This document shows positions 2,036 through 42,964 of a stretch of 64,000 nucleotides of DNA, in pieces. The stretch lies in IMG/VR virus record IMGVR_UViG_3300044878_000031, positions 32,001 through 96,000 of that record; one strand, given 5' to 3'. Source of the stretch: a virus. Position 1 is the first letter of the stretch. Every line of letters begins with the position of its first letter. The notes under the pieces were generated by a model, which saw only the letters and a list, made by a program, of their open reading frames with translations, was not told the DNA's origin and made no database searches. The translations under genes were made by a program, and so were the position numbers.

Positions 2036-4045
2036 TTACTGGCGACGACCCCAGGTCCCGGTGAACGGGCTGGCGAAGAGACGCGAGTTCTGCTGCTGTT
2101 GAGAGCCGTAGTTGAAGAAGTTACCGATGTTGCTACCGGCAACCAGGTGATCCAGAGCGTAGCCACCACGTTGGATGGTAGCAGCGCCGTCATCCAGACC
2201 TTTGGCAGGGCGGATAGCCAGGCCAGACTTCTCGATGGCTTGCGACAGGGCTTCCAGGAAATCGTTGTTGAAGGATACGCGACGTGCGAAGCCTTTCACG
2301 TGGATCTCGCTGGCAACCAGTTGTTGCAGGATCGCCTTGCGCTGAGCCAGACGGATTTCCAGAGGAACCTGTGTGTTGCGGTGGGTGTCTTCCCACGCTT
2401 CAACCAGTTTCGGATTGGTCTTGCCAGCCAGGTTGAGAATCGCAACGTAGTCCAGCTCACGCAGGTCACGACGATTGCCTTCGCGATCGTAGTAGTAGCC
2501 GAGGTGGATGCGGTCTTGATCGTCGTAGCAGACTGGGTTGGCCGGGTTGAACAGAGTCTGGAAGTGACCCATGGTCAGGTTGTTGGCCGCTTGCAGGATA
2601 GCCAGGTTGGCATCGACGTCGCCGTTGGCGGCAGCGATGTAGGTCTGGTGAATCCAGGACAGCTCGCCAGCTTCTTCGATGTCGAGGCTGTAGATCAAGC
2701 GAGGAGCGATCAGCATGTTGATCAGTTGGCGCATGGCGTTGTTGTCGAACTCGGTTGCGCGAGTGTCGAGGCGATCTGGCTTGGCTTGTGGATCGCCAGT
2801 CAGGTTCACTTCGTAACCCAGTGCGCCCAGGTCTTTCAGATCAACGTCGGTGCCTTTACCTTTGGCAGCGTAGTAGGTACCGGCCCACTGCATGTTGCGG
2901 TTCAGACCCAGGCCAGTAGCCAGAGCCAACAGTTGCAGTTCCATGGACACGGCGTCGGTCAGGGTATCGATCGACGTCATCACGAAACGTGGCTGGTACA
3001 TCTGAGTAGCCATCGGCTGCTGCTGGAACATGCCCATTTGCAGTTGGTTCTGCTGGAAGCCAGCTTGCTGAGCAGGCTGGTACATCAGATCCACGTAGCC
3101 GGTGAGGCGAGTCAGCGGACGGGACTGTTGCAGGCCGAACTGAGGATCGGTCTGGGTTTGAGCCGACATGGTTACCGCGATGTCCGCACGGACAGGCAGG
3201 CCAACGATGTTTTCGTCGTGCTGACGGGAGAAGTCAACGCGAGCGATCATCTGGTCGTTTGCACCAACTTCGCCGAGGCTGAAGGGTTCTTCGGTACCGC
3301 CCAGCTTGTTGTCCATGATGGCGTAGCAAGCTTGGGTGCTGTTGTGCAGCAGGCGGTTGAAGTGCGCTTCGGTAGTGGTTTCGCATTCAGCAGCGATCAC
3401 TACGCAACCGGCGTCGTGTACCAGAGCGTTCACGCCGAAGCTGTCGATGACGAACTTCTCGAGAACTTGCCAGTAGCTCTTGTTCAGGTAGATGTCGGAA
3501 CCAACGATGTCGACTTCCACTTGGCCGGTGCCAGGGATGTTCACGCTGTTCGGTTCCAGAGGAGCGCCCGAGGATTCAACCATCAGCGAGTAGACCGCGA
3601 TGTGGTTGGTGCCTTGGAACTCTTCTTTGTAGCAGACCAGGATCGAGCTGTAGGTCACCGGGTTCTGGTTGTTGTCCAGTACCAGGATGTTGAAGTCTTT
3701 CTTCTGCTGGTCGGACATGATGCGAGCAGCACGATCTTTCAGACCTTGGGAGATCAGTTGAACATCTTCGCCGGTCAGGTTACGCGGCACCGGACGGCGG
3801 TGGTTGGCGTTGATGTCGAGGACGGAACGGCCACGACTGCCGACGCGGGAGTTTTGCTGGTTCTGGTTCATGTTTACGCCTGCATTGAAAGGTTGTTGCG
3901 ATTGAGCTTGAGGTTGGGGTGCAGCTTGAGCCTGAGGTTGGACAGGGTCAGGCTGAGCGCCAGTATTCATTCCCGCCTGACGCATGGCATCGGCCATTGC
4001 AGAGTTAGGAGGGGTTTGGCCTTCGCCTTGACGTTTGACGGACAT
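2036..4045 (-). CDS. chmA: Chimallin, major phage nuclear shell protein (phiKZ gp54 / 201phi2-1 gp105-like)
   Basis: ~670 aa, strong codon bias, own early promoter and terminator, immediately upstream of the nvRNAP beta' subunit; disordered Q/P-rich N-terminus; start moved to ATG 4045 (AAGGA RBS). Confidence 0.85.
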   Translation of the reverse strand: MSVKRQGEGQTPPNSAMADAMRQAGMNTGAQPDPVQPQAQAAPQPQAQSQQPFNAGVNMNQNQQNSRVGSRGRSVLDINANHRRPVPRNLTGEDVQLISQGLKDRAARIMSDQQKKDFNILVLDNNQNPVTYSSILVCYKEEFQGTNHIAVYSLMVESSGAPLEPNSVNIPGTGQVEVDIVGSDIYLNKSYWQVLEKFVIDSFGVNALVHDAGCVVIAAECETTTEAHFNRLLHNSTQACYAIMDNKLGGTEEPFSLGEVGANDQMIARVDFSRQHDENIVGLPVRADIAVTMSAQTQTDPQFGLQQSRPLTRLTGYVDLMYQPAQQAGFQQNQLQMGMFQQQPMATQMYQPRFVMTSIDTLTDAVSMELQLLALATGLGLNRNMQWAGTYYAAKGKGTDVDLKDLGALGYEVNLTGDPQAKPDRLDTRATEFDNNAMRQLINMLIAPRLIYSLDIEEAGELSWIHQTYIAAANGDVDANLAILQAANNLTMGHFQTLFNPANPVCYDDQDRIHLGYYYDREGNRRDLRELDYVAILNLAGKTNPKLVEAWEDTHRNTQVPLEIRLAQRKAILQQLVASEIHVKGFARRVSFNNDFLEALSQAIEKSGLAIRPAKGLDDGAATIQRGGYALDHLVAGSNIGNFFNYGSQQQQNSRLFASPFTGTWGRRQ

Positions 4046-4127
4046 CTCTCGATTCCTTTTCTGTATTTGGGTGAGCACTAACACATCATGAGCATCTGCA
4101 CTATTTTAATACAGTTCGCTTGATGTT

Positions 4128-4676: not shown

Positions 4677-5777
4677 ATGTACACCCTATTTAACGAACCG
4701 ATCTGGGGTACGAGTGGTGCTAGTGTTACTTTCCCCAAATACCTCCGGGCGACCCAAGGCCTGAGACAGAATCTGGAGAAGGTGGTTCAGTACAACCGTA
4801 CTTATCCAAGGGCTGTGGAGAGCAACCACTTTCTGGTAAAACTCCTGGCATCCCTTAACGTACCATTAAGCATGGATGTCAACATTTACCGGGACCGGGT
4901 GGAGGAGGTAGCGGAAGGCGTGAGTATGGCCTTCAACTTGACTTCTTCCTTATATAGAGGCCGAGTGTTCTCTCCGGGGATCTTCTACGGGAAAGGGTCT
5001 TCTGAGATCATCATTGCCCATGCTGAAGAATTCGACATCCGCAACATTGAGGATGAGTGGGAAGATTACCGCCCAGTGACTTTCCTGACTCACCCCAAGA
5101 CTGACCTAGGGATTGACTTGCCCTTGGGATTCCAGAACGGTAGCGAAGAAGGTTTCTCTGTCATTCTGGTAAACATTCCGATGTTGGCTTGCCAGTACCG
5201 GATGTGGCGTATCCGAGAGTACCGGGAGAACAATGAAGCACAACGCACCAAAATGCAGTTCGTGTCTTCGTATCCCCTGACCAACGCTCTGTACTCCCAA
5301 CTGGACATTGCGATCCTGAATCGTTTCCAGCGCATCTACCGGGGAGAACCTCGGGGTATGTCAATGCTGCGTAAGCCCTACACCCTGACTCGTTTGGAAC
5401 AGGAACTGGACTTTGGGTTAGACCAGTACGCGGAAGACTTGCAGAAACGCAACTACACCTTCGATCACGTCCTTAGCTATATTACAGGCGTCTCGAGTTG
5501 GACGATGCGTGATGCTATCCGTATTCCTCCGATGGCACCTACCCGGCAGGTTACTTGGGCTTTGGCCTTAGGTCGGGCTGAGCTGGTGAACTTCCTGCTC
5601 GACTGGAACATCGAGAACGACGTCAAGGCCAACAAAGGCTATTGCAACACGATCCAACTGGAGACTTCCCGGTTGCTCAATGACAGTATCATCAAGTCGA
5701 TGCTACCGATGTGGGCACAGAAACCCTGGGACGATCTCTTACGCAAGATCATCGCCAAAGCAAAAAGCGTCCGCTAG
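4677..5777 (+). CDS. Conserved Chimalliviridae core protein (phiKZ gp52-like), function unknown
   Basis: 366-aa ORF on the opposite strand between chimallin and DNA polymerase, the usual arrangement in this family. Confidence 0.7.
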   Translation: MYTLFNEPIWGTSGASVTFPKYLRATQGLRQNLEKVVQYNRTYPRAVESNHFLVKLLASLNVPLSMDVNIYRDRVEEVAEGVSMAFNLTSSLYRGRVFSPGIFYGKGSSEIIIAHAEEFDIRNIEDEWEDYRPVTFLTHPKTDLGIDLPLGFQNGSEEGFSVILVNIPMLACQYRMWRIREYRENNEAQRTKMQFVSSYPLTNALYSQLDIAILNRFQRIYRGEPRGMSMLRKPYTLTRLEQELDFGLDQYAEDLQKRNYTFDHVLSYITGVSSWTMRDAIRIPPMAPTRQVTWALALGRAELVNFLLDWNIENDVKANKGYCNTIQLETSRLLNDSIIKSMLPMWAQKPWDDLLRKIIAKAKSVR

Positions 5778-5779
5778 GG

Positions 5780-5825
5780 AAACAGGGAGGGGCTCGCGCC
5801 TCTCCCTGTTTCTCCTTATGCCGCA
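5780..5825. terminator. Bidirectional terminator between convergent genes
   Basis: GAAACAGGGAGGGG/CCTCTCCCTGTTTC inverted repeat followed by TTATGCCG. Confidence 0.75.
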
Positions 5826-8044
5826 ACAGACGCTGGAACAAAGTCCGAAACCAACTTAGTATTGTTGTCGTTAGACAAGAACACACCAAGGGATTCCAAA
5901 ATCAAATAGAACGGCCGGACAGTGGAGTACACGAGTTTACGGATGTTCATTGCAGACAGCACTTCAGTAGGCAGACCTACTTGCTCTACGACGTCCTTCG
6001 GCAACAACAGAGTAGTTGCGTTAGTCTTGTCGCGATAGGTAGTCATCAATTGCATCTTGATGTTTGGATCTTGGATACCCTCAATCCATTGGCCCAGTGC
6101 AGTTTTGTTAGGCAAGTCTAGGGAAACCTTGATTGCCGAGTACGGTGGTTTTGGAGCTTCACCGTATTTGCCGCTGAACACACGTTCCCACAACAGGTAG
6201 TGCTGGTACGGAGATTGACCTGGGTTAACGTAAGCACCTGCGTCTTTAACCGAAGCACGAGCCAAGTACAGGGATTCCCCACGCATAACCGACGCGACAA
6301 TGCCGTGTTCGATGTCTGCGATCTTCTGCATGATCGGAGTGATCTTGATCTTCTCACCAGCCATCACGCAATCCATTACCCCACACATCGTGGCTGTAAC
6401 TTCCTTCATGATGTTCGGAGGACAGTTCGAGTCTTTGAGGTAAACCCCTTTGATCTCTTCCTCCAGCTCGGTGAACACGTTACCTTCTTTGGCTGCCTTG
6501 TAGGCGTAGTAGTGCTTAGCCATCGAGGTCAGACTGAAGACAGAGAATGCAAACTCGTTCTTCATGGCCAGTACGTTGAGTTTCTCAGGGACTACGCCCA
6601 GAGTGGTCGACAACATAGCCAGTACGTGAATGATCGACTGAGTAGCCAGATAAACCATGGTGTAATCCACGGCAAACGACTCGGGACTGAAGTCCACCTT
6701 ACCGGTGTACCACTCTACCCAGTTCTGCACGGTGAAGATCGTGGAGTCTGTGTCGGAGGTAATAGCTACCTGACGCACCGAATCCCGAATCCATGCAATA
6801 GAAGCAGGCATGTTGTCTGTAACCCAGAACGCTTTGATCAACCACTGGTAATCGTTGAGTACCGAATGGATGTTCTTGACCGTAGCGCCAATCAGGCAGT
6901 AGTTGTGGGGGTTCTGTTCCAGCAACTTACCCAGGCCTAGGCCCGACAGTTCATCGGAACACAGCAAGCTTACAAACGCTTTGAGGTCGTTGTCCATTCC
7001 CTTGATGAAGGTCTTGGCTTCTTCCAGCTCAATCGGCACTGTAGCTTTCTGGGAGAGACGCGCCATAAAGACACGCATCGGTACATCGTTGTACTTCGCC
7101 AGATGCCACATGTCGCCTACGTAAGCAAACGCAGCACGCTCATGATCGTTCAACCCTTCTACCAGAGCACGGATCTCTTCCATCTGACGACGGTTGGTCC
7201 AGTAGTGTTGAGTCGAGTACGCAATCAGTTGCATGGTCTCGTCTACGGTTGGAGCACGGAATCCGTAGAGATCCATAGCCTTAGCGATCAAGTCGTAATC
7301 CACGTGACCGATAATGCTGACGATGTTGGCCTTCACTACGTCTGGTGCCCAGTAGTGACGGTTGCCTGCAAGGAACTTCTCGTTGTTAGCGTTACCCAAC
7401 GAAGTAGCTACCCGGCAAGTAGAAGTCAGACTGGAGTGTGCAGACTTGTTGTGGAGAATCGTGGAAGCCGACGCTTGCCCACCGGACAGACTGTTGTTCG
7501 CAATCTTGTACGTGGTCTGTTCGTTTTCCTTGAGGTCTTCCAGTTCTTCCATGGTTGCCGCTTGGCGGTTCATGAAACGAGCCTGAACTGTATCACCCGA
7601 TGCTAGGAACTCAGCCGCTTTCAGCTTGAACTCCTGACCAGCCATCTTGGCTTCCAGACCTTCGTGCTTTACTTTACCCCGACCGACGATGTTACCGGTG
7701 ATGTATTCGGAGAGTAGAGACGGCAGTACGTCTGGATGTTCGTAGACTGTCATGCTTGGAGCAAACAGCCAACGTTGTTCGAGGATGTCCTTCAAGTACT
7801 GAGTGAAGGTGGTTTCGTATTGTCCCCGATCCCCATTCTTTCCACGGTTAATACAGAGGAGAGTAGGGTCAGTGATTTCGAACTTGCCGCCTGGACCAGT
7901 AACCCGGAGAACGTAAGCCTTGCAGTCCTCTACGGGTTTACCGGTACGTCTGCTCAGGAACAGAGCCATATCCCGACGATAGTTACCCAATACGTCTAAG
8001 TCGCGTTTATACGCAGACGCTGGTTTAACAAAATGGTTTTCCAT
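5816..8044 (-). CDS. Family B-like DNA polymerase, polymerase subunit (phiKZ gp50-like)
   Basis: KIANNSLSG (motif B-like), SDTDS (motif C), KHY and IKGV motifs; no obvious exonuclease domain, as expected for the split phiKZ polymerase. Confidence 0.88.
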   Translation of the reverse strand: MENHFVKPASAYKRDLDVLGNYRRDMALFLSRRTGKPVEDCKAYVLRVTGPGGKFEITDPTLLCINRGKNGDRGQYETTFTQYLKDILEQRWLFAPSMTVYEHPDVLPSLLSEYITGNIVGRGKVKHEGLEAKMAGQEFKLKAAEFLASGDTVQARFMNRQAATMEELEDLKENEQTTYKIANNSLSGGQASASTILHNKSAHSSLTSTCRVATSLGNANNEKFLAGNRHYWAPDVVKANIVSIIGHVDYDLIAKAMDLYGFRAPTVDETMQLIAYSTQHYWTNRRQMEEIRALVEGLNDHERAAFAYVGDMWHLAKYNDVPMRVFMARLSQKATVPIELEEAKTFIKGMDNDLKAFVSLLCSDELSGLGLGKLLEQNPHNYCLIGATVKNIHSVLNDYQWLIKAFWVTDNMPASIAWIRDSVRQVAITSDTDSTIFTVQNWVEWYTGKVDFSPESFAVDYTMVYLATQSIIHVLAMLSTTLGVVPEKLNVLAMKNEFAFSVFSLTSMAKHYYAYKAAKEGNVFTELEEEIKGVYLKDSNCPPNIMKEVTATMCGVMDCVMAGEKIKITPIMQKIADIEHGIVASVMRGESLYLARASVKDAGAYVNPGQSPYQHYLLWERVFSGKYGEAPKPPYSAIKVSLDLPNKTALGQWIEGIQDPNIKMQLMTTYRDKTNATTLLLPKDVVEQVGLPTEVLSAMNIRKLVYSTVRPFYLILESLGVFLSNDNNTKLVSDFVPASVAA

Positions 8045-8134
8045 TGTTGCTCCTAAAGCTGTGGCCTTTCATTCTATTGTGCACTCATAGATTTAATTAC
8101 TGTCGGCATAAAAGGGAGCCGAAGCTCCCCTCTA

Positions 8135-12164: not shown

Positions 12165-12190
12165 CACTTGGATAATATAGGTCTCAAACT
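12165..12190 (-). promoter_or_regulatory. Early promoter
   Basis: AGTTTGAGACC-TATATTAT-CCAAGTG on the minus strand (one mismatch to TATATTAC). Confidence 0.7.
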
Positions 12191-13428: not shown

Positions 13429-13515
13429 TGGTACCCGAAGCCGGGGTCGAACCGGCACGGCCTTTCAGCCATCGCATTTTAAGTGCGGTGCGTCTACCGA
13501 TTTCACCATTCGGGC
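13429..13515 (-). tRNA. tRNA-Leu(UAA)
   Basis: Cloverleaf GCCCGAA/TTCGGGT, loop CTTAAAA, long variable arm, encoded CCA. Confidence 0.95.
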
Positions 13516-13601
13516 AAAAGGGTGCCTTCTCTCACGTCGGGACAGGGTTCTTTGTTTCCGGCGCAGATCCATCACTCATTGAGAGAGAAGACATAACAAC
13601 G

Positions 13602-13695
13602 TTGGGGGATCGACACGATAGGATTCGAACCTATGGACCGTAGCCAGCGCTTAGCGCTTGCCTTAAACCACTCAGCCACGCGTCGAAACCCCCAA
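13602..13695 (-). ncRNA. tRNA-like RNA with collapsed anticodon arm and extended acceptor stem
   Basis: Intact D arm and T arm (ATAGG-TTCGAAT-CCTAT); anticodon arm AGCGC-TAA-GCGCT; no CCA at the canonical position; outer TTGGGGG/CCCCCAA stem. Confidence 0.75.
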
Positions 13696-13816
13696 ACTCT
13701 GTGTACCACATTAGTCCTCCTAGTTCTGATTACCCTGCGCGTCAGGTCGGTCGTAACTAGGATGGGCGTGTACCGACGCCCCGTTTTACTTCTGTTCCCT
13801 AAGGAACCTTCTAATG

Positions 13817-13898
13817 TGCGGCCCTCGGCAAGATTCGAACTTGCGACCTTCACCGGACCGAAGTCCGACAACGTTCTAACCGACTGAACTACGAGGGC
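13817..13898 (-). ncRNA. tRNA-like RNA with a UUCG tetraloop in place of the anticodon loop
   Basis: Perfect acceptor GCCCTCG/CGAGGGC, canonical D and T arms; central arm TTGTCGGAC-TTCG-GTCCGGTGA; ends CGCA. Confidence 0.8.
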
Positions 13899-13906
13899 AT
13901 TACAAA

Positions 13907-13992
13907 TGGCGGAAGGATAGAGATTCGAACTCTAGGACCTGTTACAGTCGACGGTTTTCAAGACCGCTGCAATACCGCTATGCGACCCTTCC
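13907..13992 (-). tRNA. tRNA-Ser(UGA)
   Basis: Cloverleaf, loop CTTGAAA, long variable arm, GCCA end. Confidence 0.95.
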
Positions 13993-14254
13993 GAAATCGA
14001 GCCGGGGCTTTCCCCGGAGTCACCACATAGCCAAGGCGGCGGCTATGAACCAATGGGAAACCCTGAGCAAGAGCCGATGGTACTCGGAGTCAGCAAGCTC
14101 ACCTCTATGGGGTACGAGATCTACGTGTATCGCTGTGTGAGCAACGATCCACTCCTTCGCAGGGGCAGGACACCAGGCAGGGCAGGCGCTTAGTGTTGGG
14201 CGGACCGTCTCGTTTATACTCGAGTACAGAAGCGCCTGAGGCGCGGTCCATAAA

Positions 14255-14342
14255 TGGCAGTAGATAAGAGATTCGAACTCTTGTGGCTGTTACACCAACA
14301 CGCTTTCCAGGCGTGCCCCTTAAGCCGCTCGGGCAATCTACT
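14255..14342 (-). tRNA. tRNA-Ser(GGA)
   Basis: Cloverleaf, loop CTGGAAA, long variable arm, GCCA end. Confidence 0.95.
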
Positions 14343-14349
14343 GTAGTGC

Positions 14350-14501
14350 TTCGATCATTACCCGGTGTGCGGTATATCGTATCCGCTCAGGCGTCCCAGC
14401 TAGGATTTCGGGTTGTACCTAGAATGCCGCCTTGGACGGGCGGAGTTATACCTTTCGGCGTTTTTAACTATTGGGACTCTTTTACCGCACCACTGATCGA
14501 A
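14350..14501 (-). ncRNA. Candidate structured RNA in a tRNA spacer
   Basis: Nested stems TTCGATCA/TGATCGAA, GTGCGGTA/TACCGCAC and GTCCCA/TGGGAC enclosing three hairpins, one with a GAAA tetraloop. Confidence 0.6.
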
Positions 14502-14572
14502 TTGCTTTATCGGGAATCGAACCCGAGTGAGCCGCCTGTGTGGCAGCCGTTCTACCATTGAACTATAAAGCG
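14502..14572 (-). tRNA. Atypical tRNA (nominal anticodon CAC, Val) or tRNA-like RNA
   Basis: Good D and T arms; anticodon loop CACACAG lacks U33; C1:A72 mismatch; no encoded CCA. Confidence 0.65.
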
Positions 14573-14576
14573 TGCT

Positions 14577-14651
14577 TGGCTCCGAGACCTGGACTCGAAC
14601 CAGGGACCAAACGGTTAACAGCCGTTTGCTCTACCACTGAGCTATCCCGGA
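14577..14651 (-). tRNA. tRNA-Asn(GUU)
   Basis: Cloverleaf, loop CTGTTAA, GCCA end. Confidence 0.95.
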
Positions 14652-14659
14652 ATGAAACT

Positions 14660-14842
14660 TTAGGCCGACTTCAGAACTTCAGTGACCTTGATCTCGCGAT
14701 CGTCGTAGACAACGCGCTGAGCTTGTTCACCGTCTTGCAGGATGAACTTCTCGTACACTTCGCCAGTAACGCGATTCACGATAACCACTTCGACTTCTTT
14801 ATCGGAAGCGCAGTGGGCTTGAGTAATAACTGTAGTAGTCAT
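14660..14842 (-). CDS. Small hypothetical protein (60 aa, beta-rich)
   Basis: AAGGAG RBS, highly expressed-type codon usage, directly downstream of the Tad2-like gene. Confidence 0.8.
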   Translation of the reverse strand: MTTTVITQAHCASDKEVEVVIVNRVTGEVYEKFILQDGEQAQRVVYDDREIKVTEVLKSA

Positions 14843-14851
14843 GACGACTCC

Positions 14852-15490
14852 TTAAACAGGGCGACGGTTGTAGTTGACGCGCTTAACTTCAAGCTCGACG
14901 AACAGCGCAATCGGATACCCTTCAGGCAGTTGTACAGCAACCTTGGAGTTTGTGGTCTCTTGGTTAACCGTAATGCTGAATGGAATTTTAACGACGCTAC
15001 CGAGAGTGCCGTTGAGGTGAATGTCTCGACCGATCTTTACAGACCGTGAGAAAGTCGCTGCAACTTCAACATCGTCTTTGGTAACGATGCGGAGAACCTT
15101 GACTGAGTCAATGCTGTCCGTGATGTCCACAGCAACGCCACTGGCTCCTACCAGACCGAACAGGCTCTTGGCATCACCGTCTTTCAACGGGAGGCGTACA
15201 TTGGAGACGTCAGTGTTGATGGAAGGTTCCGTCAGGATCTCCCAGTCTTTACCCAGTTGATCCGATTGAGCCGGATGCCACGGGGTGAAAACGTTCTGAG
15301 CTGTCTTCATGCCAACCCACGGTGCCAGTGTTGGACACTCGTTCTCACCAGGCTTGTAGCCCAGGGTTGCACAACCTACATCGTAATTACCCGGAGTGAC
15401 TAACACCAACCACATGTCTTTGCCATTCCAACTTGGGCGAGTAACACGCTTGCCTTCATGCAATGCCGCAATTGCTGCACCGAAGTCCAT
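14852..15490 (-). CDS. DUF2829 / Tad2-like anti-Thoeris sponge domain fused to an extra C-terminal domain
   Basis: MDFGAAIAALHEGKRVTRPSWNGKDMWL ... PWHPAQSDQLGKDWEI matches the DUF2829 pattern; start ATG 15490 with AAGGA RBS. Confidence 0.82.
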   Translation of the reverse strand: MDFGAAIAALHEGKRVTRPSWNGKDMWLVLVTPGNYDVGCATLGYKPGENECPTLAPWVGMKTAQNVFTPWHPAQSDQLGKDWEILTEPSINTDVSNVRLPLKDGDAKSLFGLVGASGVAVDITDSIDSVKVLRIVTKDDVEVAATFSRSVKIGRDIHLNGTLGSVVKIPFSITVNQETTNSKVAVQLPEGYPIALFVELEVKRVNYNRRPV

Positions 15491-15500
15491 GGGTAATTCC

Positions 15501-15662
15501 TTAACAAACGAGGATAGGGACTGGAATGCCTTTCTCGGCACAGACGCGCTTTAAAGCTTCGTCTGCATCTTTCCAGCGCTGTAGTCGGGCGAGGCTTTGC
15601 TCACGAGACTGCGGAGTAATCTTGGAACGATCCAGATCACGTAAGCGAAAGACCGGAACCAT
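15501..15662 (-). CDS. Small hypothetical protein (53 aa, MVPVFRLRDLDRSK...)
   Basis: AGGAGG RBS; fills the gap between tRNA-Ser and the Tad2-like gene; below the ORF-track size cutoff. Confidence 0.65.
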   Translation of the reverse strand: MVPVFRLRDLDRSKITPQSREQSLARLQRWKDADEALKRVCAEKGIPVPILVC

Positions 15663-15678
15663 GAGGCCTCCTAAAACG

Positions 15679-15766
15679 TGGCGGCGGGTGAAGGATTTGA
15701 ACCCTCGGGGCTGTTACACCCTCTCCCTTAGCAAGGGAGCGCATTAAACCACTCTGCCAACCCACC
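15679..15766 (-). tRNA. tRNA-Ser(GCU)
   Basis: Cloverleaf, loop TTGCTAA, long variable arm, GCCA end. Confidence 0.95.
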
Positions 15767-15773
15767 GTGAAAA

Positions 15774-15850
15774 TGGCGCCTCCGAACGGACTTGAACCGT
15801 CGACCCCTAGCGTGACAGGCTAGTGCTCTAACCAACTGAGCTACGGAAGC
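15774..15850 (-). tRNA. tRNA-Asp(GUC)
   Basis: Cloverleaf, loop CTGTCAC, GCCA end. Confidence 0.95.
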
Positions 15851-16044
15851 GTAAACGTCCTGAGGAATATGGACTCTGCAATCACCCAGACTGTGCCTGT
15901 AGGTGCATCGCGTGTAGGCTCAAGGTTCGTGTAGACTACCATGGGCCAAGAACAGTCCTGAGCATGACGAGCAAGGCTTAGCACTTTAAAGCGCAGCCCG
16001 CTAGGAGATAGATACTCTCCTTTCTCTTCAATAGTCTCAAGCAT
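15841..16044 (-). CDS. DUF1653-like small protein
   Basis: G-x-x-F-x-V-x-x-x-A-x-H ... VVY-x-x-L ... W ... F pattern; start ATG 16044 with GAGGA RBS; stop codon lies inside the tRNA-Asp 5' end. Confidence 0.65.
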   Translation of the reverse strand: MLETIEEKGEYLSPSGLRFKVLSLARHAQDCSWPMVVYTNLEPTRDAPTGTVWVIAESIFLRTFTLP

Positions 16045-16298
16045 GTTCGTTCCTCGAATTTGTTGCCTACTTGCTTCCCGTTTGAAGCGGGTTGCTAAAC
16101 TCATGTGTAACCAGACGCCCCGCAGGTCATGGGCTTTATCTATCTAGCCAAGCCGCCCCCGAGGGCACCGAGTTAGATCCACTGGATTACGAGTTAGGTG
16201 ATCCTCTCAGCGTTTGTCACGCCAAGTTAAACATGAAGACCGGGAACGGCTATCCGCGAATTCGCAAGCCAATAGTTCTTCAACGTAAGGATCGTAAA

Positions 16299-16384
16299 TG
16301 GTGGGTGAGGTAGGATTCGAACCTACGAAGCCATCGGCGTCAGATTTACAATCTGATAACTTTGAACCACTTGTATACTCACCC
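16299..16384 (-). tRNA. tRNA-Tyr(GUA)
   Basis: Cloverleaf, loop TTGTAAA, long variable arm, ACCA end. Confidence 0.93.
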
Positions 16385-16389
16385 GGTAA

Positions 16390-16473
16390 AGCTGACAATG
16401 TTAGGCATCGAAGCCCTGCTAGTTCCCGGACCGCACTAGCTTTCCATTAACGACGGCTGACGCGTTGTCAGCT
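16390..16473 (-). ncRNA. Cloverleaf-like RNA with a T-loop-like hairpin
   Basis: AGCTGACAA/TTGTCAGCT closing stem enclosing three hairpins, the last GGC-TTCGAT-GCC. Confidence 0.55.
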
Positions 16474-16516
16474 ATGGCCCTCGCTAATGACTCCCCAGGA
16501 GTGCACTGCCACAAAA

Positions 16517-16655
16517 TGGTCCTCCGCTGTCGGATCTACCGACGCGACCGCTTCAACTGACCCCCGGCGTACGGGACGTTTAGGTTACACTAGAACAACA
16601 TTCCCACGCAGTAGCGTTCACAATGCGCACTCTAATGGCCTTGGTCTACAGAGGA
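16517..16655 (-). ncRNA. CCA-terminated, acceptor-stem-containing RNA (~140 nt)
   Basis: CCTCTGT/GCGGAGG stem plus ACCA end, preceded by a GTCGG-TAGAT-CCGAC hairpin in the T-arm position. Confidence 0.55.
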
Positions 16656-16669
16656 TGAAACTATGAATT

Positions 16670-16799
16670 TGGCCCCGAGGGGTGGACTCGAACCACCGAC
16701 CTCCCGCTGGCAAGCGTGTTTAAACGTTCTCGCCACGTTAGTAGCTATCAACGTAACCGCATGTCTAACGAGTGTTCTAACCGACTGAACTACCCAAGG
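16670..16799 (-). ncRNA. tRNA-like RNA with a ~53-nt insertion in the anticodon loop
   Basis: Canonical D arm, T arm (GGTGG-TTCGAGT-CCACC) and GCCA end; stem CTCGTT/AGCGGG closes a large structured insert. Confidence 0.78.
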
Positions 16800-17128: not shown

Positions 17129-17542
17129 TTACGGAATCTCTGGGAAGCCCACGATCTTCAGGACTAGGTTACGCTTACGGCGATACCAACCAATGGATCT
17201 GGTAGGGTAGCCACGTTCCTCACTCTGCTTACGAATGGTCTCGTCATCTTCAAACAGCAGGGGGACTGGGAAGTATCTCCAGTGTTCTTGACTACCGTGC
17301 CTGACTAAGGCGTGGAGTGTACGCTTACTCCAATTGCCGGTGGTAATGCCTTCGATCAATTCTTGTTTGATTGCTTCGATGCACTCGGCTGCGTTGGAGG
17401 CGTTGAATAGATTGTTGTAGTGCGCAACAGTTGTACCTGACTCTTCGTCGTTAGCACGTTTCATGATGTATAGGACACCACCATTCTCATGCTTGGCAAT
17501 GTTACCGTTAGCGTAAGTGTGAGTGTGGTATTCGCGGGTCAT
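17129..17542 (-). CDS. Early hypothetical protein
   Basis: Start moved to ATG 17542 (MTREYH) because the early promoter lies inside the longer ORF call. Confidence 0.75.
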   Translation of the reverse strand: MTREYHTHTYANGNIAKHENGGVLYIMKRANDEESGTTVAHYNNLFNASNAAECIEAIKQELIEGITTGNWSKRTLHALVRHGSQEHWRYFPVPLLFEDDETIRKQSEERGYPTRSIGWYRRKRNLVLKIVGFPEIP

Positions 17543-17591
17543 GGGTAATACCTTCTGAGGCCAATAGATTAGAGGGAGTTTGTAGCGTGTA

Positions 17592-17618
17592 CACCAAAGT
17601 AATATATATCTGAAACTT
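17592..17618 (-). promoter_or_regulatory. Early promoter
   Basis: AGTTTCAGATA-TATATTAC-TTTGGTG on the minus strand. Confidence 0.75.
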
Positions 17619-17671
17619 CTTTGATTCAACCCCGAATAGAATGAAGGGTTATTTTACTTTGGGGTGTTCTA

Positions 17672-18289
17672 ATGAACCGTTTGCAGGAACTGGTACAGAT
17701 CGGGGAACTCGATCTAACCTACAGTCCTGAGGGGCTGGAGATGATGGAGGAGGCTTCTGCTGAAGTCCCTTCCAAGACGATCTACATATTGCTTACCGAT
17801 ACCAAGACTCTGGTCAGTAAGGTTAGCCGTATGGTTACAGGTGATCCGTACAACCACGTGTCGCTGATGCTGTCTGATGACTTCGATGATGGTATCTATA
17901 CCTTCAGTCTGGGGAACGGCGTCAACGGCATTAAGGGTGGCTTCATGGTGGAGGATCGTGCAAACCTGAAAGGGTCTCACTACTCCATGTACAAGATGGG
18001 AGTCACCTCTGACGCGTACGACAAGATCAAGACTCGAATCACTGACTACGTCAAGGGTATCGAGAAAACGTCATACAACCATCTGGGGTTGTTTAACGCG
18101 ATCTTCAAGAAGAACATCTTTAAGACCGAGGATGGCCAAACTTCGATCTGTTCTGAGTTCGTCGTTGAAGTCCTGAAGTTCTCCGGCGTAGAACTCTTCG
18201 CCAAAAGATTCGCCAGCTCTGTAAGACCTTACGAGTTGATCAAATCGAAACTGTTGAAGTTCCACCGTCGTGGCGTCATAAAACCCTAA
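17672..18289 (+). CDS. Permuted papain-like (NlpC/P60, YiiX/YebB-like) protein, probably virion-packaged
   Basis: His before Cys order: YNHVSL ... Y-N-H-L-G ... ICSEFV; N-terminal acidic leader with GLE site. Confidence 0.78.
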   Translation: MNRLQELVQIGELDLTYSPEGLEMMEEASAEVPSKTIYILLTDTKTLVSKVSRMVTGDPYNHVSLMLSDDFDDGIYTFSLGNGVNGIKGGFMVEDRANLKGSHYSMYKMGVTSDAYDKIKTRITDYVKGIEKTSYNHLGLFNAIFKKNIFKTEDGQTSICSEFVVEVLKFSGVELFAKRFASSVRPYELIKSKLLKFHRRGVIKP

Positions 18290-18334
18290 GTCTAGACCGG
18301 CTCACTTAGGTGGGTCGGTTTATGGCGGCATAAA

Positions 18335-18897
18335 AGCGCGGCTCGAGGGAATCTCGAACCTACTCCAGAACTTTCACAGCCCGGTAGGGCAGGAGCGTCT
18401 GTTTCGCGTTGGAATCCCTGCGGCTTTGCTTTTATGTTTTCTTACTGTCAAACACGTTGGCTTTTTGTGGCTGTGATCGTCTTCTTTCCAAGGCCTTGGT
18501 AAGTGTTGCCTTAGATCCACACTAGCTCAGGTACACCCTTTACGTGCTCCGGCCTCACACTGAGGCTCTATCAACATTTGAATGCTCGTGAACCTCTAAG
18601 CGCTATAAGGTGGCCAAGAGGTATGCTTGCCCGGCCCTTTGCCGAGTGCATTACCACCGTGCCACTTATTGATGGGCTTAGAAAGGCGCAAGGCTATTGA
18701 TTGTGGTTTGCCGGAATCTCTCCCTATGTCGGGTATCAAACTGAACACGAGCAAGTGCGTCAGTCTGAAAAGTGCGAACACTCTAACCCAACTAGAAATC
18801 CCCAACCAAAGCCAGTTCTTCAACTCTTCTGTCACGGTGTGCGCGTTAACCGTTGGACTTTCAGTCATCAGATTATACTGGAGGTCTCCTATGACTG
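18335..18897 (-). ncRNA. Candidate large (~560 nt) ornate non-coding RNA
   Basis: Long nested helices with many G-U pairs on the minus strand, a UUCG loop, multiway junctions; ends at the genome's TTTTATGCCG terminator tail. Confidence 0.62.
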
Positions 18898-19206
18898 GCA
18901 CGCACCTCGAGCGTGGGTCAGCGGAATCCCCGCAGCGAGTCTCGGACTCGCAGTACGTAGATGAATGGAACAGTCCGGCAAGTCGTACCACACGTCCACG
19001 GCGCGATCGCGCCAGAGGTCGCTATGAACCAAGCCAGCATCAAACTGACGGGGCAGTAGCCCAATCTGCTCAGCGGTGACATGGTGTGGATTATGATAAC
19101 CGCGATAGCTACCATCGTCTTCGACGACTTCGATACCGCGATCTATCAATGCTTGCGCGACTAACGAACCTAACCCTAGACAGCCCCCAATGAGGAGAAC
19201 TCTCAA
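18889..19206 (-). CDS. Hypothetical protein (N-terminal Rossmann-like VLLIGG.G.LGS segment)
   Basis: TTG start with AAGGA RBS, downstream of phuZ in the same operon. Confidence 0.6.
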   Translation of the reverse strand: MRVLLIGGCLGLGSLVAQALIDRGIEVVEDDGSYRGYHNPHHVTAEQIGLLPRQFDAGLVHSDLWRDRAVDVWYDLPDCSIHLRTASPRLAAGIPLTHARGACQS

Positions 19207-19219
19207 GTGCAGTCCTTAC

Positions 19220-19414
19220 TCAGCCCAACCCTACTCCTGAAGGGCGGTTCTCGACCATGTGTTTAGCAGGATCGTAAACCACCTTCTCGTAGCAGTTGTG
19301 CCAAGGCTTTCCTTGACAACACGTACAGTGGAACGGAGCAGCCGCTGGAGAGGTGAGTAACTCAATCACCCCGCACTTGTCACAGGCGTACTCCAACAGC
19401 GCTCCACCACTCAT
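19220..19414 (-). CDS. Small Cys-rich (Zn-ribbon) protein
   Basis: CxxC ... CxxC ... WH; start overlaps the phuZ stop codon. Confidence 0.75.
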   Translation of the reverse strand: MSGGALLEYACDKCGVIELLTSPAAAPFHCTCCQGKPWHNCYEKVVYDPAKHMVENRPSGVGLG

Positions 19415-20388
19415 TACAGCACCAGGCCGTCGTCGGTGACGGTGTCCTTGGCATCGTTGATCAACTTCTGGGCAGCAGCGCGGCCTTCGCTACGCTGTTC
19501 GAAGTCGTTGATGGTCGATTGTAGGCGATCGAAGGTAGCACCCAGGTGTTGGGTGGATACCACGAAGTGCAGCTCCTGGATGTCTTTCACCGGATGTAGG
19601 AAGTAGCCAGTGCAGGAGTATTCCGGCACGGGGGTTTCCAGATGCGGCTGATTACGATCGGCGTACAGCGAGGCGATCGAGATCGGGTCAGCAATTTCAG
19701 ACACGTCGCTGGCGCCAGCGAAGATGTCCAGCAGAACCAGTTGAGCTTCTACGCTGGTCGACTTGTTGATGTTCAGCCAGTTGTAGATGTCCTTGGTGTC
19801 CAGCTCGGCGTTCTGACGCGAGGCCAGGTAGCACAGGCAGGAGATTGCGAAGTCCAGTTGGTCGTCGACAATCTTGCGAGTAGCTTCGCCGCCGTTGTGA
19901 CGGTAGAACGCGACCAGCGGTTTGTCGATTTGCTTGGTGATAGCCGACAGGGACTTCACGGTGTTCAGGGTGTTGCGTGCAGTGATCGCAGCTTCGGACG
20001 AACCGGCGGAAACGATAACTACGGAGTGACCACGGTCAGCCAGCTCTTTTGCCAGCAGTGGGCCGATTACCGAACCCGAACCGCCCGACGCCGAGAAGAC
20101 GACGATGTTGAAATCTTCAGGAGCCTGCTTGAGCAGGATCTGTTTGATGACTGCGGAGATCTGCGCGTGGTTCTCTTTACGCACTTTACCGGAGCCGTCG
20201 GTTTTCTCGAGGATGAATACGTCTTCTTCCTTGACCGTGTCGGTCAGGTTGGAACGACTGGTGTCCACGAAGCTTGGGAGCAGATCCGCGAAGCCCGGTG
20301 CGGATTGACGATTCAGGTAACGCAGGGCAACGTTCACGCCCAGACCACCACAACCGTACAGACGCACTTTACCTTTACCTTGTTCCAT
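19414..20388 (-). CDS. phuZ: PhuZ phage tubulin
   Basis: GCGGLGVN, DTSRSN, GSGKVR, tubulin signature SGGSGS, NAELD, acidic C-terminal tail DDGLVL. Confidence 0.95.
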   Translation of the reverse strand: MEQGKGKVRLYGCGGLGVNVALRYLNRQSAPGFADLLPSFVDTSRSNLTDTVKEEDVFILEKTDGSGKVRKENHAQISAVIKQILLKQAPEDFNIVVFSASGGSGSVIGPLLAKELADRGHSVVIVSAGSSEAAITARNTLNTVKSLSAITKQIDKPLVAFYRHNGGEATRKIVDDQLDFAISCLCYLASRQNAELDTKDIYNWLNINKSTSVEAQLVLLDIFAGASDVSEIADPISIASLYADRNQPHLETPVPEYSCTGYFLHPVKDIQELHFVVSTQHLGATFDRLQSTINDFEQRSEGRAAAQKLINDAKDTVTDDGLVL

Positions 20389-20541
20389 TTTCTACATCCT
20401 AGATCAGTTAATTTCGACGGTAGGTTTTACAAGAGTCGCATTACTCTCAATAGATACTACCACGGAATCTTTTTTTACAGATGCTCATAAGTATCGGGTA
20501 CTTTATGACCGTAGGTCCACATCTATAACCTCGAGGCCTTT

Positions 20542-26400: not shown

Positions 26401-26427
26401 CACCAGAGTAATATAGACTTGAGATTT
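26401..26427 (-). promoter_or_regulatory. Early promoter
   Basis: AATCTCAAGTC-TATATTAC-TCTGGTG on the minus strand. Confidence 0.78.
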
Positions 26428-30333: not shown

Positions 30334-30409
30334 AGGGAAAGTCCTAGAAAGAGTGGGTAGCTCATAACTTAGACGGCATAAAGCCGGAGGTTGCCCTCCG
30401 GCCCTAACC

Positions 30410-32095
30410 TTACAGAGCAGTAACCTGCAATGTAACCATCCCGCCCATGCCCAACTGGAGGTCTCCCTCTTGTAGGCGTTTGACGAAACGAATGAACAAC
30501 GGTTTCCCGTCCTTCGGTACTTCTGGAACTTGCAACTCCGTGTTCCAACGATCAATTGGGTAAGCGAATTCCTTACCGTTGATCATCAGCATGAAGTAGT
30601 TCGGTTCCGGTGCTTGGGTTTCGGATTGAGTATTCACCAACGGCTGAGCGTTGTAGAACACGTCCTTGATCCACAAGTCTTTCAACAGGTAACCCGAATC
30701 AATCTTCAGGAGCCAGTTGTTGACGTTGATGAACTTAGCCCGTGCACGCAGACCTTTACCGTACAGCTCAGGTTGCCCCGAGTAGTACTCGATGTTCCAT
30801 CCGTTGGTCTGGGTGTTACCCGGAGCCAGCAGTGCTACACCGATAGTCTGGGCGTGACGCCAGTCGGAGTAGTTGCTATCGATGTCGGACATGTTGATAC
30901 CAACGTTGATACGCTGGATCGGACCGTACGACGTCGGGTCGAATGGGTTCGAGTTGAGTGCGAAGGTAACCTTGTCAGTCACTTCGAAGAACTCAGAACG
31001 GTTGAGGTTGAACAAGAACCAGCGCAGCTTGTAACCCATGGTGGCATCGATCCACTCTGGGAAACAGAACAACTTGACAGAGTACGCACCGTTCATTCGT
31101 GTAGTGGTTGCCCAATACGGAACAGACATGTGCTTAGTGACGTTAGCCGAAGCCCCGTACACGTACTCTTCAGCCGACAGCTTGTACGACAGAGCCAACT
31201 CGACCTTCTGCCCCACGATGGTAGCAATGAAGTTCTGCAACCCGTACAGGTTGAACTTGGTTCCGTCGACTGGCATGATCTTGCGAGAGCCGTCGCTGTA
31301 CGTCACCACACCACGAGCGTTGAGTGCGTCGATCGGCATGTTGATAGCGAACTTCAACAGACTGTCGTCGCCTTCCGAAATGAACGGAGACTCGAGGTGG
31401 ATACTGGTGATAAACTTCTTCGACGCGTCCGTAGTACGGATGAACGCCGTGTTCATAACCAACAGCTTGGTGATCGAAGTCACGTTACCCACGGCATCGT
31501 ACAACACCGCAGTAACCACTTCATTGTCCGGCAGCTTCTGCAAGGTGTAACCAACCATCGGAGCTTTCACTGCGTAGTTGATTGCAGAGGGAACACCCGA
31601 CTGTGGGTTGTTGGGGACTTGCACCAACTCCAGTGGAATGTTCTCACCGAGCAACGTACCGCCGTGATCGTACATCGCAGAGATCACTTTGGATTCGTCA
31701 CTGATGTCCGTACCCCAGAAGATCTTGACGCTCGACACAGTAGTACCGTAAACCCGCAAGCGAGAGTCGATAGCCAACACGTGAGGAGTAACCGAGGTAT
31801 CGAGATACACACGGTAGGATTCATTCTGGTGTTCGTGACCCACACCCAACAGGATGTCTTCATCGGACACTTCAGAACCCGTCTTCGGAGGTTCGTACTC
31901 TTTGAGCTGACTCAAGCCAGTCAAGAGGTTAACGGCGATTACTTGCCAGAGACCAGTTACCCAGTCCCAGACTTCGTCGTTAACGTTAGGGACGTAGCGC
32001 CCCGTACCGGTAGGACCGGTATAGATCTCATCTTTTCGCCACCGACGGTGACCCCGGTTAGGGTCTGTGATCGGGACGATAAACGTATCGCTCAT
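30410..32095 (-). CDS. Virion structural protein (phiKZ gp26-like, probable baseplate)
   Basis: 561-aa beta-rich ORF next to terL. Confidence 0.72.
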   Translation of the reverse strand: MSDTFIVPITDPNRGHRRWRKDEIYTGPTGTGRYVPNVNDEVWDWVTGLWQVIAVNLLTGLSQLKEYEPPKTGSEVSDEDILLGVGHEHQNESYRVYLDTSVTPHVLAIDSRLRVYGTTVSSVKIFWGTDISDESKVISAMYDHGGTLLGENIPLELVQVPNNPQSGVPSAINYAVKAPMVGYTLQKLPDNEVVTAVLYDAVGNVTSITKLLVMNTAFIRTTDASKKFITSIHLESPFISEGDDSLLKFAINMPIDALNARGVVTYSDGSRKIMPVDGTKFNLYGLQNFIATIVGQKVELALSYKLSAEEYVYGASANVTKHMSVPYWATTTRMNGAYSVKLFCFPEWIDATMGYKLRWFLFNLNRSEFFEVTDKVTFALNSNPFDPTSYGPIQRINVGINMSDIDSNYSDWRHAQTIGVALLAPGNTQTNGWNIEYYSGQPELYGKGLRARAKFINVNNWLLKIDSGYLLKDLWIKDVFYNAQPLVNTQSETQAPEPNYFMLMINGKEFAYPIDRWNTELQVPEVPKDGKPLFIRFVKRLQEGDLQLGMGGMVTLQVTAL

Positions 32096-38713: not shown

Positions 38714-38748
38714 GGACGGGGGCCTTCGGGCTCCCGTTTTATGCCGTA
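38714..38748 (+). terminator. Intrinsic terminator
   Basis: ACGGGGGCC-TTCG-GGCTCCCGT followed by TTTATGCCG. Confidence 0.85.
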
Positions 38749-40055: not shown

Positions 40056-40098
40056 CGGCATAAAAGCAAAAAAAAGAGGGGGCCCGAAAGCCCTCTCT

Positions 40099-40482
40099 TT
40101 ATGCCGCTTGTTTCTGACGGTACTGCAACACCAAGTCGTGGATCGTGTTGAACAGGTCTAACTCGTTGAGGTAGTACTTGTCCAAGGAAAACGGATTGAT
40201 GTAGTTGTTCTTGAAAGCGTAGTCGTAGAACTGTTGATAGCACTGTACCTTGTCAGGCCAACGATCACTGAATGCGAGACACCACTGGAAGTAGAACACT
40301 ACCAATGGGTTACTGCCACACACTTGATGCACACGCATGGGTCTCAACTCTTTAGCGAACTCTTTCGTTAAAGCTTCGTACTCATTGCGTTCGGTAATGG
40401 ACTTCCCCCGAAGTTCCACTGCCTCGTAACTCAAGCCAATCATTACAGCCAACAACAATGTCCTATAACGTTCTACGTCCAT
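40099..40482 (-). CDS. Hypothetical protein
   Basis: 127-aa ORF in an operon. Confidence 0.72.
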   Translation of the reverse strand: MDVERYRTLLLAVMIGLSYEAVELRGKSITERNEYEALTKEFAKELRPMRVHQVCGSNPLVVFYFQWCLAFSDRWPDKVQCYQQFYDYAFKNNYINPFSLDKYYLNELDLFNTIHDLVLQYRQKQAA

Positions 40483-41882: not shown

Positions 41883-41909
41883 CACTAGAGTAATATATAC
41901 CTCAGATTA
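41883..41909 (-). promoter_or_regulatory. Early promoter
   Basis: AATCTGAGGTA-TATATTAC-TCTAGTG on the minus strand. Confidence 0.78.
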
Positions 41910-42863: not shown

Positions 42864-42890
42864 CACCTAAGTAATATATACTTCAAATTC
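42864..42890 (-). promoter_or_regulatory. Early promoter
   Basis: AATTTGAAGTA-TATATTAC-TTAGGTG on the minus strand. Confidence 0.78.
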
Positions 42891-42964
42891 TTTTTAACAC
42901 GATTCGTTTTAAGCGGCATAAAAGCCCCTAGGGATACACACCCTAGGGGTCTTATGCGATCACG

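Follow-up and report, generated by a model that had tools for sequence, protein, structure and literature searches.

What does a phage keep in some 570 nucleotides (nt) of DNA behind the last protein-coding frame of its tubulin operon? The question is raised by a 64,000-nt stretch, hereafter the window, which covers positions 32,001 to 96,000 of the 112-kilobase (kb) IMG/VR virus record IMGVR_UViG_3300044878_000031. Its minus strand carries, in this order, the tubulin gene phuZ, a zinc-ribbon open reading frame (ORF; 19220-19414), an ORF of 105 amino acids (aa) and then the stretch in question, beyond which lies a convergent plus-strand gene for a protein of 205 aa. Judged by its gene content, the source genome is that of a nucleus-forming jumbo phage (chimallivirus), because a nuclear shell protein (chimallin; 2036-4084, phrog_4795, E=2e-111) and the beta subunits of a phage multisubunit RNA polymerase are encoded in the window together with PhuZ. 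A first-pass annotation, made from the letters alone, had proposed a large and ornate non-coding RNA as the final element of the phuZ operon (18335-18897, minus strand), and the stretch was found at those coordinates and on that strand. The proposal is upheld by conservation, covariation, strand asymmetry and the absence of a coding signature: a structured RNA of about 570 nt occupies window positions 18895-18327. We consider it fairly probable that this RNA represents a family of large structured non-coding RNAs absent from Rfam 15, stable and acting in trans, which resembles ROOL and GOLLD without being a member of either.

Homologues of the RNA provide most of the evidence. Five full copies (L001, L003, L005/L011, L006 and L008) were recovered from a PhuZ-based search and from exact-word scans of IMG/VR and JGI metagenomes, and two more divergent copies (L018 and L019) were reached by way of the neighboring 205-aa protein. 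Together these make a set of eight sequences, here called type 1, consisting of six close copies, the window included, and the divergent pair; about 20 further metagenomic relatives (P0002-P0023) are known solely through the 205-aa protein and stand outside the RNA alignments. Among the six close copies the RNA core is 87-95% identical by BLAST and the flanking genes are 67-81% identical. In bins of 50 nt, identity to L001, L003 and L006 is 85-99% across 18850-18551, as compared with about 60-85% in the flanking genes and 33-46% in the ORF upstream. Conservation extends to junction and loop sequences, a constraint beyond the needs of a simple stability hairpin. The copies are also mosaic: in alignment A3, the 5' half of L008 (GAGAG/CUCUU) agrees with L001/L011 and its variable region with the window, a pattern that suggests recombination within the RNA gene between phages.

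On the minus strand, 18335-18897 folds at -186.3 kcal/mol with a z-score of -2.54 (0 of 100 shuffles as good), and the plus strand gives z = +0.79; the comparison with shuffled controls that had been named as a check thus separates the two strands. The earlier claim that G-U pairs favor the minus strand is likewise borne out, since the alignment of eight sequences contains many invariant G:U pairs that would be C-A mismatches on the plus strand, which fixes the strand. A model of 118 base pairs was assembled from the helices of the first-pass annotation, from RNAalifold and from single-sequence folds, and it was counted on a MAFFT alignment (A6) that had not been fitted to any model. In this alignment 95.4% of the cells are paired, and both sides of a pair have changed in 18 pairs, compared with 8.2±2.0 in shuffles (0 of 500 as good); sliding the model along the alignment leaves 38-47% paired and 3-6 pairs changed on both sides. 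For the interval 18829-18689, which holds helix P3 and domain 1, a covariance-model alignment, in this case fitted to its model, gives 50 pairs that are 97.3% paired, of which 13 are changed on both sides (0 of 500 shuffles as good). Compensatory change in the eight copies, another of the checks that had been suggested, accordingly exceeds both kinds of control.

Every helix named at first sight is present in the sequence, and most are kept in the eight homologues. Those that are kept with changes on both sides are UUGGUUG/CAAUCAA, GGGAUUUC/GAGAUUCC, GUUGGG/CCCGAC, GAGUG-UUCG-CACUU, UCAGACUGA/UCAGUUUGA, CUCGGC/GCCGGG and GCCUCA/UGAGGC; GGCU/AGCC and UGGC/GCCA are kept as well. Examples of compensatory replacement include GAGUG/CACUU to GAGAG/CUCUU or GAGUA/UACUU, UCAGACUGA/UCAGUUUGA to UCUUACUGA/UCAGUGAGG, and GCCUCA/UGGGGC to GUGUCA/UGAUAC, and the apical helices GGUA/UACC and CUCGGC/GCCGGG of domain 2 show double changes in L018/L019. 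Two of the named helices fare less well. The pairing CUUUCUAAG/CUUAGAGG has an equivalent CUUUC.../...GAAAG closure in the two divergent copies, but it is invariant, and hence uninformative, in the six close ones; AUAAG/CUUAU exists in the sequence but is the weakest of the named helices, at 82% paired. These two, the former as part of the domain 2 closing helices, are together with the variable region the weakest parts of the model. A 12-nt palindrome at 18499-18488, an A-rich linker at 18449-18425 and the terminal UUUUAUGCCG at 18335-18326 were all found as described.

Two elements had escaped the first reading. A helix of 10 base pairs, P1, joins the two ends of the RNA as a clamp (18895-18886 with 18336-18327); it is 98.8% paired in the eight sequences, and four of its pairs change on one side (G:U<->A:U, G:U<->G:C, C:G<->U:G). 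The conserved block begins slightly upstream of the RNA itself, at a hairpin (18915-18899) that had not been named either. The GCGCA of the P2 loop is complementary to an inter-domain UGCGC, and a pseudoknot between the two, both of which are invariant, is conceivable. Toward the 3' end, a helix of GCCGCAG with CUCGAGC, bearing one bulged C and one bulged A, is invariant in the eight type-1 RNAs and in three aligned RNAs of a second type described below; it is 95.8% paired, and the combination is unique in the window. RNAalifold had offered a helix GAGGUUC/GAGCCUC and a long-range pairing GCCUGAAG/UUUGGGGC, which were dropped in favor of hairpin H4 and the UUUCUAAG/CUUAGAGG closure of domain 2, because of the competing helices only the latter pair in L018/L019. 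The parts of the RNA and its surroundings are collected in Table 1.

Table 1. Coordinates of the RNA, its parts and the features around it (window positions).
Feature	Position	Strand	Remarks
Whole RNA	18327..18895	-	About 569 nt, bounded by the end-to-end clamp; RNAalifold and single-sequence minimum free energy (MFE) folds; conserved block in alignments A3 and A6
Hairpin H0 (CACGC...GCGUG)	18899..18915	-	Lies in the final codons of the variable ORF; all 8 sequences 100% paired; one pair U:A -> C:G
Clamp helix P1, 5' strand, GUCAUAGGAG (GGCAUAGAGG in relatives)	18886..18895	-	Read on the plus strand, the phage terminator motif
Hairpin P2 (ACGGU/ACCGU)	18834..18853	-	Conserved 10-nt loop with GCGCA; 100% paired in 8 sequences
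Small hairpin P3 (AGUU-GAAG-AACU)	18814..18825	-	Paired in the six close copies; wobble pairs only in L018/L019 after covariance-model alignment
Domain 1	18692..18813	-	Long stem and three-way junction: UUCG-capped hairpin, 13-bp hairpin, small GGCAAACC hairpin; models R1, R2
Domain 2	18586..18691	-	Irregular hairpin of about 105 nt, closed by UUG/CGA and UUUCUAAG/CUUAGAGG; apex CUCGGC-AAAGG-GCCGGG
Hairpin H4 (GCCUCA-GUG-UGAGGC)	18552..18566	-	C:G -> U:A and C:G -> G:U in L018/L019; U:A <-> U:G elsewhere
Variable region	18450..18551	-	Hairpin with self-complementary 8-nt loop AAGGCCUU (18497-18490); insertions in L003, L011, L001
A-rich linker	18425..18449	-	Read from sequence; similar A-rich stretch before GCCGCAG in type-2 RNAs
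3' module	18341..18424	-	GCCGCAG (18424-18418) with CUCGAGC (18347-18341), one bulged C and one bulged A, enclosing a variable hairpin
Terminal hairpin GGUUCGAG-AUUCC-CUCGAGCC	18340..18360	-	Alternative to part of the 3' module; serves as terminator stem; MFE folds
Clamp helix P1, 3' strand	18326..18336	-	Overlaps terminator motif UUUAUGCCG at 18334-18326
Promoter-like motif GUAUAAUCUGAU	18867..18878	-	Resembles GTATCTATTGAG upstream of phuZ (20457) and GTATCTGATGAG at 38746; L006 has exact TATATTAC
Plus-strand terminator of the 205-aa gene	18295..18327	+	Hairpin and TTTATGGCG; dG = -19.8; abuts the RNA 3' end
phuZ (tubulin)	19414..20388	-	First gene of the operon ending at the RNA; Pfam TubZ_C_2 E=5e-15; phrog_4733 E=8e-92
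105-aa ORF, hypervariable	18889..19206	-	Gene immediately upstream of the RNA; relatives share 33-46% of its nucleotides
Convergent 205-aa gene	17672..18289	+	Neighbor of type-1 and type-2 RNAs alike; arrangement shared by 13 IMG/VR loci
Further nonamer sites	8104-8112(-), 30374-30382(-), 38738-38746(+), 40056-40106 (both strands), 42914-42922(-)		Motif contains TATG
Promoter-like consensus sites	17599-17606(-), 26408-26415(-), 41890-41897(-), 42871-42878(-), 12172-12179(-), 17650-17657(+)		

The RNA appears to be absent from the catalogues of known families. In a cmscan with Rfam 15, covering the whole window at the gathering score and 17500-20500 at E<=10 with permissive filters, no family matched it; the first-pass annotation had been unable to assign it to GOLLD or ROOL and had named OLE, RNase P and tmRNA for the same check, and none of these matches at E<=10, nor does ARAGORN call a tmRNA. 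The Rfam models for 6S RNA, signal recognition particle RNA and group I and group II introns gave no match at E<=10 either, and ROOL gave none at E<=0.1 in relatives L018-L031. Beyond its own clade the RNA left no trace in blastn at a distant setting against 50,697 records of cultured phages, and model R1 had no match in the whole genomes of Xanthomonas phages LucasX and RTH11, the nearest cultured phages by PhuZ, which also have no gap downstream of phuZ. Matches of exact and gapped pattern scans in L007, L009, L113 and L115-L126 fall in unrelated coding sequence and were taken as chance. One of them, at L007:1176-1201, is a 26-nt exact identity to GGGAGAGAUUCCGGCAAACCACAAUC of the RNA in apparently unrelated coding sequence, devoid of flanking similarity and probably fortuitous. 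Judged from these sequence searches, the RNA is confined, in the collections covered, to one clade of uncultured nucleus-forming jumbo phages that encode chimallin and PhuZ. It is single-copy there: an nhmmer search for paralogues within the window found none, the 112-kb record holds one, and the 86%-complete relatives G001 and G004 hold one each. The locus is the same throughout, bordered on one side by the block of phuZ, zinc-ribbon ORF and variable ORF and on the other by the convergent 205-aa gene.

The ends of the RNA coincide with a motif that the phage uses repeatedly. A nonamer, UUUAUGCCG/TTTATGCCG, occurs 25 times in the window with at most one mismatch, compared with 7.9 expected (0 of 100 shuffles), and it directly follows GC-rich hairpins; the upstream fold falls below the 5th percentile of random 45-mers at 14 of the 25 sites. 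It is often two-sided, in the form CGGCATAAA-hairpin-TTTATGCCG (CGGCAUAAA-hairpin-UUUAUGCCG), as at 40057-40105, on both strands. Over-representation, the position directly after GC-rich hairpins and two-sidedness together mark it as a terminator motif, and from its placement it is probably the termination signal of phage transcription units, perhaps for the phage's own RNA polymerases. The 3' end of the RNA fits such an intrinsic terminator, with hairpin 18360-18340 followed by the U(U/C)UAUGCCG motif at 18334-18326, and the 45 nt upstream of that motif fold with a free energy (dG) of -16.0 kcal/mol, again below the 5th percentile of random 45-mers. Indeed, the clamp that joins the ends consists of both halves of the phage's bidirectional terminator motif.

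Where the RNA begins is less clearly marked. Should the internal promoter-like motif (Table 1) be used, the 5' end may lie near 18866; this motif is absent in L003, L018 and L019. Enrichment of such motifs in the window was not seen: GTATAATCT occurs 3 times against 7.2 expected, GTAT-N4-5-TGA(G/T) 6 times against 7.3, and TATATTAC with at most one mismatch 18 times against 17.4. As the motifs are not enriched, a promoter of the RNA's own is a weak lead. A promoter-like consensus (A-rich, tga(a/g)gta, TATATTAC, tNNNGTG) stands 40-70 nt upstream of start codons at several places in the window; it appears to resemble the early promoter of phiKZ-like phages.

A sister clade holds a different RNA in the same place. 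In L024-L028, five phages whose 205-aa protein is about 60% identical, a conserved non-coding stretch of about 340 nt occupies the same locus (e.g., L025:3576-3923, minus strand). This type-2 RNA has z = -3.17 and an RNAalifold consensus of 96 pairs, five of them with double changes. It has no detectable similarity to domains 1 and 2 of type 1, and model R2, run with filters off on L024-L031, found nothing significant. What the two types have in common, as invariant blocks, are the clamp CGGCAUAAA/UUUAUGCCG, the A-rich linker and the helix of GC|CG-c-AG with CUCG-a-GY that carries the bulged C and the bulged A. That the GCCGCAG/CUCGAGY helix survives in both types suggests that it is specifically recognized. 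When IMG/VR was scanned with gaps for this combination of features, only known members and chance coding matches came up. L030, a relative still further removed, carries ordinary genes and terminators at the equivalent site and lacks the RNA. Two group I introns were seen in L030 (4725-5058(-) and 5212-5563(-); Rfam, 92 and 87 bits), directly downstream of a PhuZ-like ORF (5565-6581) and upstream of a zinc-ribbon ORF; judged from this arrangement, the tubulin gene or its neighbor may be split by introns.

Could the locus be explained without a free RNA that has a function of its own? One possibility is a cis-acting 3' module of the phuZ operon, that is, an oversized terminator, insulator or stabilizer that would bar 3' exonucleases and keep the phuZ and 205-aa transcripts from colliding. 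The RNA sits between the halves of a bidirectional terminator motif, where other sites have a GC hairpin of about 30 nt; convergent genes flank it in 13 of 13 loci; it ends in hairpin and motif; and a role for bulk structure over sequence would fit the different core that the sister clade has there. However, the junctions and loops do not vary between phages with 20-30% divergence in their genes, more than 12 hairpin-plus-motif terminators elsewhere in the window manage with hairpins of about 30 nt, and both types retain the doubly bulged GCCGCAG/CUCGAGY helix. Moreover, a separate terminator stands at the end of the plus-strand gene, ahead of the RNA, so that little insulation is needed. We therefore regard a purely cis-acting role as unlikely, if still the strongest of the competing explanations.

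Far less probable is an element that is selfish or was formerly mobile, for instance a decayed intron or something akin to a miniature inverted-repeat transposable element, that landed in a terminator and was spread by phage recombination. The imperfect inverted repeats that flank the RNA, which are the terminator halves, would suit such an origin, as would an allele-exchange pattern in which the close copies are 87-95% identical within flanks of 67-81% and L018/L019 are 74% identical within equally distant flanks; the two group I introns of L030 lie in the neighborhood of a site that lacks the RNA. Yet the RNA is single-copy in its genome and in G001 and G004 and its locus never varies, there is no intron-model match at E<=10, no flanking exons, transposase or homing endonuclease accompany it, and the clamp contains G:U pairs, which make it an RNA helix and not a DNA repeat. 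Of comparably low probability is a dual function in which the RNA both folds and is translated, from a frame at 18868-18596, into a hydrophobic peptide of 80-100 aa. This frame has 99 codons in the window, its homologue is open for 83-100 codons in all eight type-1 RNAs, with a hydrophobic stretch (LKNWLWLGISSWVRVFALF...), and a GTG at 18835 is invariant. Against translation, the ratio of nonsynonymous to synonymous substitution rates (dN/dS) in the open frame is 1.04, 1.77, 0.66 and 0.60, which is not below the 0.45-1.16 of the other two frames, and substitutions are spread evenly over the codon positions (8/9/3 in L001 and 33/36/32 in L019). No conserved ATG or Shine-Dalgarno sequence was found for the frame in the eight copies (the ATG of the window, at 18867, is TTG or AGC in relatives), and the invariant GTG lies within hairpin P2. 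The point at which the frame closes differs in L003, L006 and L018/L019, and the frame has no conserved counterpart in type-2 RNAs. It may be open by chance: a stretch of at least 83 codons is open in 26% of shuffles of the RNA, and the chance of its staying open at the divergence of L019 is about 0.2. With dN/dS like that of the other frames, an even codon-position spread and no conserved start or ribosome-binding site, translation is not supported. The first-pass annotation had seen no ORF with a well-placed ribosome-binding site here and had named translation of this frame with codon-level conservation as the sign that would speak against a non-coding RNA; the former observation stands, and no codon-level conservation was found.

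The reading that we prefer, a stable RNA acting in trans, has weaknesses of its own that should temper it. The ends, the abundance and the stability that it ascribes to the transcript are predictions from sequence, and action in trans is a guess, the analysis having turned up no partner, target or ligand. Over half its length the RNA of L018/L019 shows 74% identity, which does not exceed the conservation of the flanking genes, and strong sequence constraint is therefore not universal. The eight type-1 sequences fall into roughly two divergence classes, and the covariation counts rest on few independent events. The palindromic loop, in turn, is absent from three of the eight copies and its covariation amounts to a single event, and a start at the promoter-like motif would leave the 5' strand of the clamp outside the RNA.

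If the preferred reading nonetheless holds, the RNA would form the final segment of the phuZ transcript, unless a weak promoter-like site of its own supplied the start. Termination would fix the 3' end, the clamp and the terminal hairpin would shield it, and the RNA would accumulate in stable form. It could then act in trans as a scaffold or a self-assembling particle of the ROOL/GOLLD kind, with a second copy possibly paired through the palindromic loop AAGGCCUU. This loop is found in five copies and takes the form AACGCGUU in L001; none was seen in L006, L018 or L019. L001 keeps the palindrome by a G->C plus a C->G change, and this double change breaks a competing intramolecular pairing of the loop with an upstream CUAAGG. 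As one compensatory event in one sequence, this hints at a kissing-loop dimer. Co-transcription with phuZ is presumed, and a link to the spindle or to the phage nucleus would be conjectural.

Several other candidate explanations were set aside. Domain 2 is complementary at 15 of 17 positions to the mRNA of a 166-aa gene (17338-17354), which might have been an antisense target; this match is not kept in any relative and is thus put down to chance. A retroelement-style template or variable repeats beside the hypervariable ORF found no counterpart, as there are no repeats. An RNase-P-like GAAAGUCC at 18863-18856 is not conserved, being GAAG--CC in relatives. A group I or group II intron was rejected because no Rfam model matches and because the minus strand downstream is only the antisense of the convergent gene.

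The genes around the RNA have peculiarities of their own. In the 105-aa ORF conservation is limited to the N-terminal ~30 aa, of which the first 31 are 48% identical to the L001 ORF; this N-terminus is glycine-rich (LIGGCLGLG) with a Rossmann-like motif, and the ORF ends in a different frame in L001. The 205-aa protein has invariant D, H and C-S residues and no Pfam match, with a weak match to phrog_1128. It has 65 metagenome relatives, one of them labeled Streptomyces sp. CHB9.2 on a 242-kb contig, and 339 more distant homologues in bacterial genomes, nearly all from Bacillota among the 80 matches listed (26-39% identity). About 1.5 kb from the RNA, on the same strand, lies an island of 10-11 tRNAs (13429-16799; Rfam, ARAGORN). 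One of its members, at 16673-16799(-), is a tRNA-like gene with a large insertion, a 127-nt Rfam match of 36-45 bits that ARAGORN does not call and that is conserved in one relative (L019:2022-2149(-)); another, called by ARAGORN at 13820-13898(-), has a two-base 'anticodon' (tc) and an undetermined identity.

Why should one more phage RNA matter? ROOL, GOLLD, OLE and raiA are large ornate RNAs of puzzling function, and ROOL and GOLLD have recently been shown to build RNA-only cages. A further family, unrelated in sequence to all four, would widen this class, and its origin would be visible: the RNA has the appearance of a terminator hairpin that was enlarged to 570 nt and whose modular core was exchanged between sister clades. 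It occurs, besides, in nucleus-forming phages, in which transcription and translation are separated. Experiments could take hold of it at the palindromic loop, at the bulged helix near the 3' end and at the clamp, and might so reveal the part of ornate RNAs in infection. With the hairpin followed by UUUAUGCCG there is also a candidate signal at which the phage's own multisubunit RNA polymerases may terminate. It is tempting, if rather doubtful, to see here, next to ROOL and GOLLD, a third class of ornate phage RNA that self-assembles and arose independently, one belonging to nucleus-forming jumbo phages, in which a loop was elaborated from a terminator hairpin, the ends are protected by the clamp, copies are joined via AAGGCCUU/AACGCGUU, and GCCGCAG/CUCGAGY is the site of recognition or assembly. 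Among the papers searched, none deals with non-coding RNAs of Chimalliviridae.

How, then, does the RNA compare with systems that are already known? ROOL (RF03087) is an ornate multi-domain RNA of about 580 nt, encoded by phages and prophages and often near tRNA islands, with no known protein partner, a poorly conserved linker and a structure partly held by kissing loops; GOLLD, a phage RNA near a tRNA island, has a conserved 3' part and a variable 5' part (PMC12286853). The RNA described here is like ROOL in being phage-encoded, about 570 nt long and about 1.5 kb from a tRNA island, and in having a variable region, an A-rich linker and a self-complementary loop. Unlike ROOL, it belongs to nucleus-forming jumbo phages and lies inside a terminator motif, with no similarity in sequence or structure (no Rfam match at E<=10). 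To GOLLD (RF01998) it is similar in that it is phage-encoded and adjoins a tRNA island, and in that the clamp and the 3' module are common to both types of the RNA and the 5' and central domains differ; it departs from GOLLD in lacking an Rfam match, in its smaller size (570 or 340 nt as opposed to more than 800 nt) and in having no tRNA inside the linker. By analogy of size, phage origin, tRNA neighborhood and modular conservation, these two RNAs are its closest analogues, and tests for membership in either family failed. The group I introns (RF00028) of L030 are structured RNAs of 330-350 nt in the same neighborhood of a related phage, but the present RNA matches no intron model, has no similarity to the L030 introns and has no exons to join. 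The retroviral dimerization initiation site is a palindromic kissing loop. It shares with the phage RNA a self-complementary hairpin loop (AAGGCCUU; AACGCGUU in L001) whose palindrome is kept by a double change, whereas the phage loop is present in 5-6 of 8 copies only and has the alternative CUAAGG pairing open to it. The phage's own bidirectional terminators have the same flanking pair of motifs and the same hairpin-plus-motif ending, but where they have a hairpin of about 30 nt, the conserved and covarying structure of the RNA spans about 550 nt in type 1 and about 320 nt in type 2.

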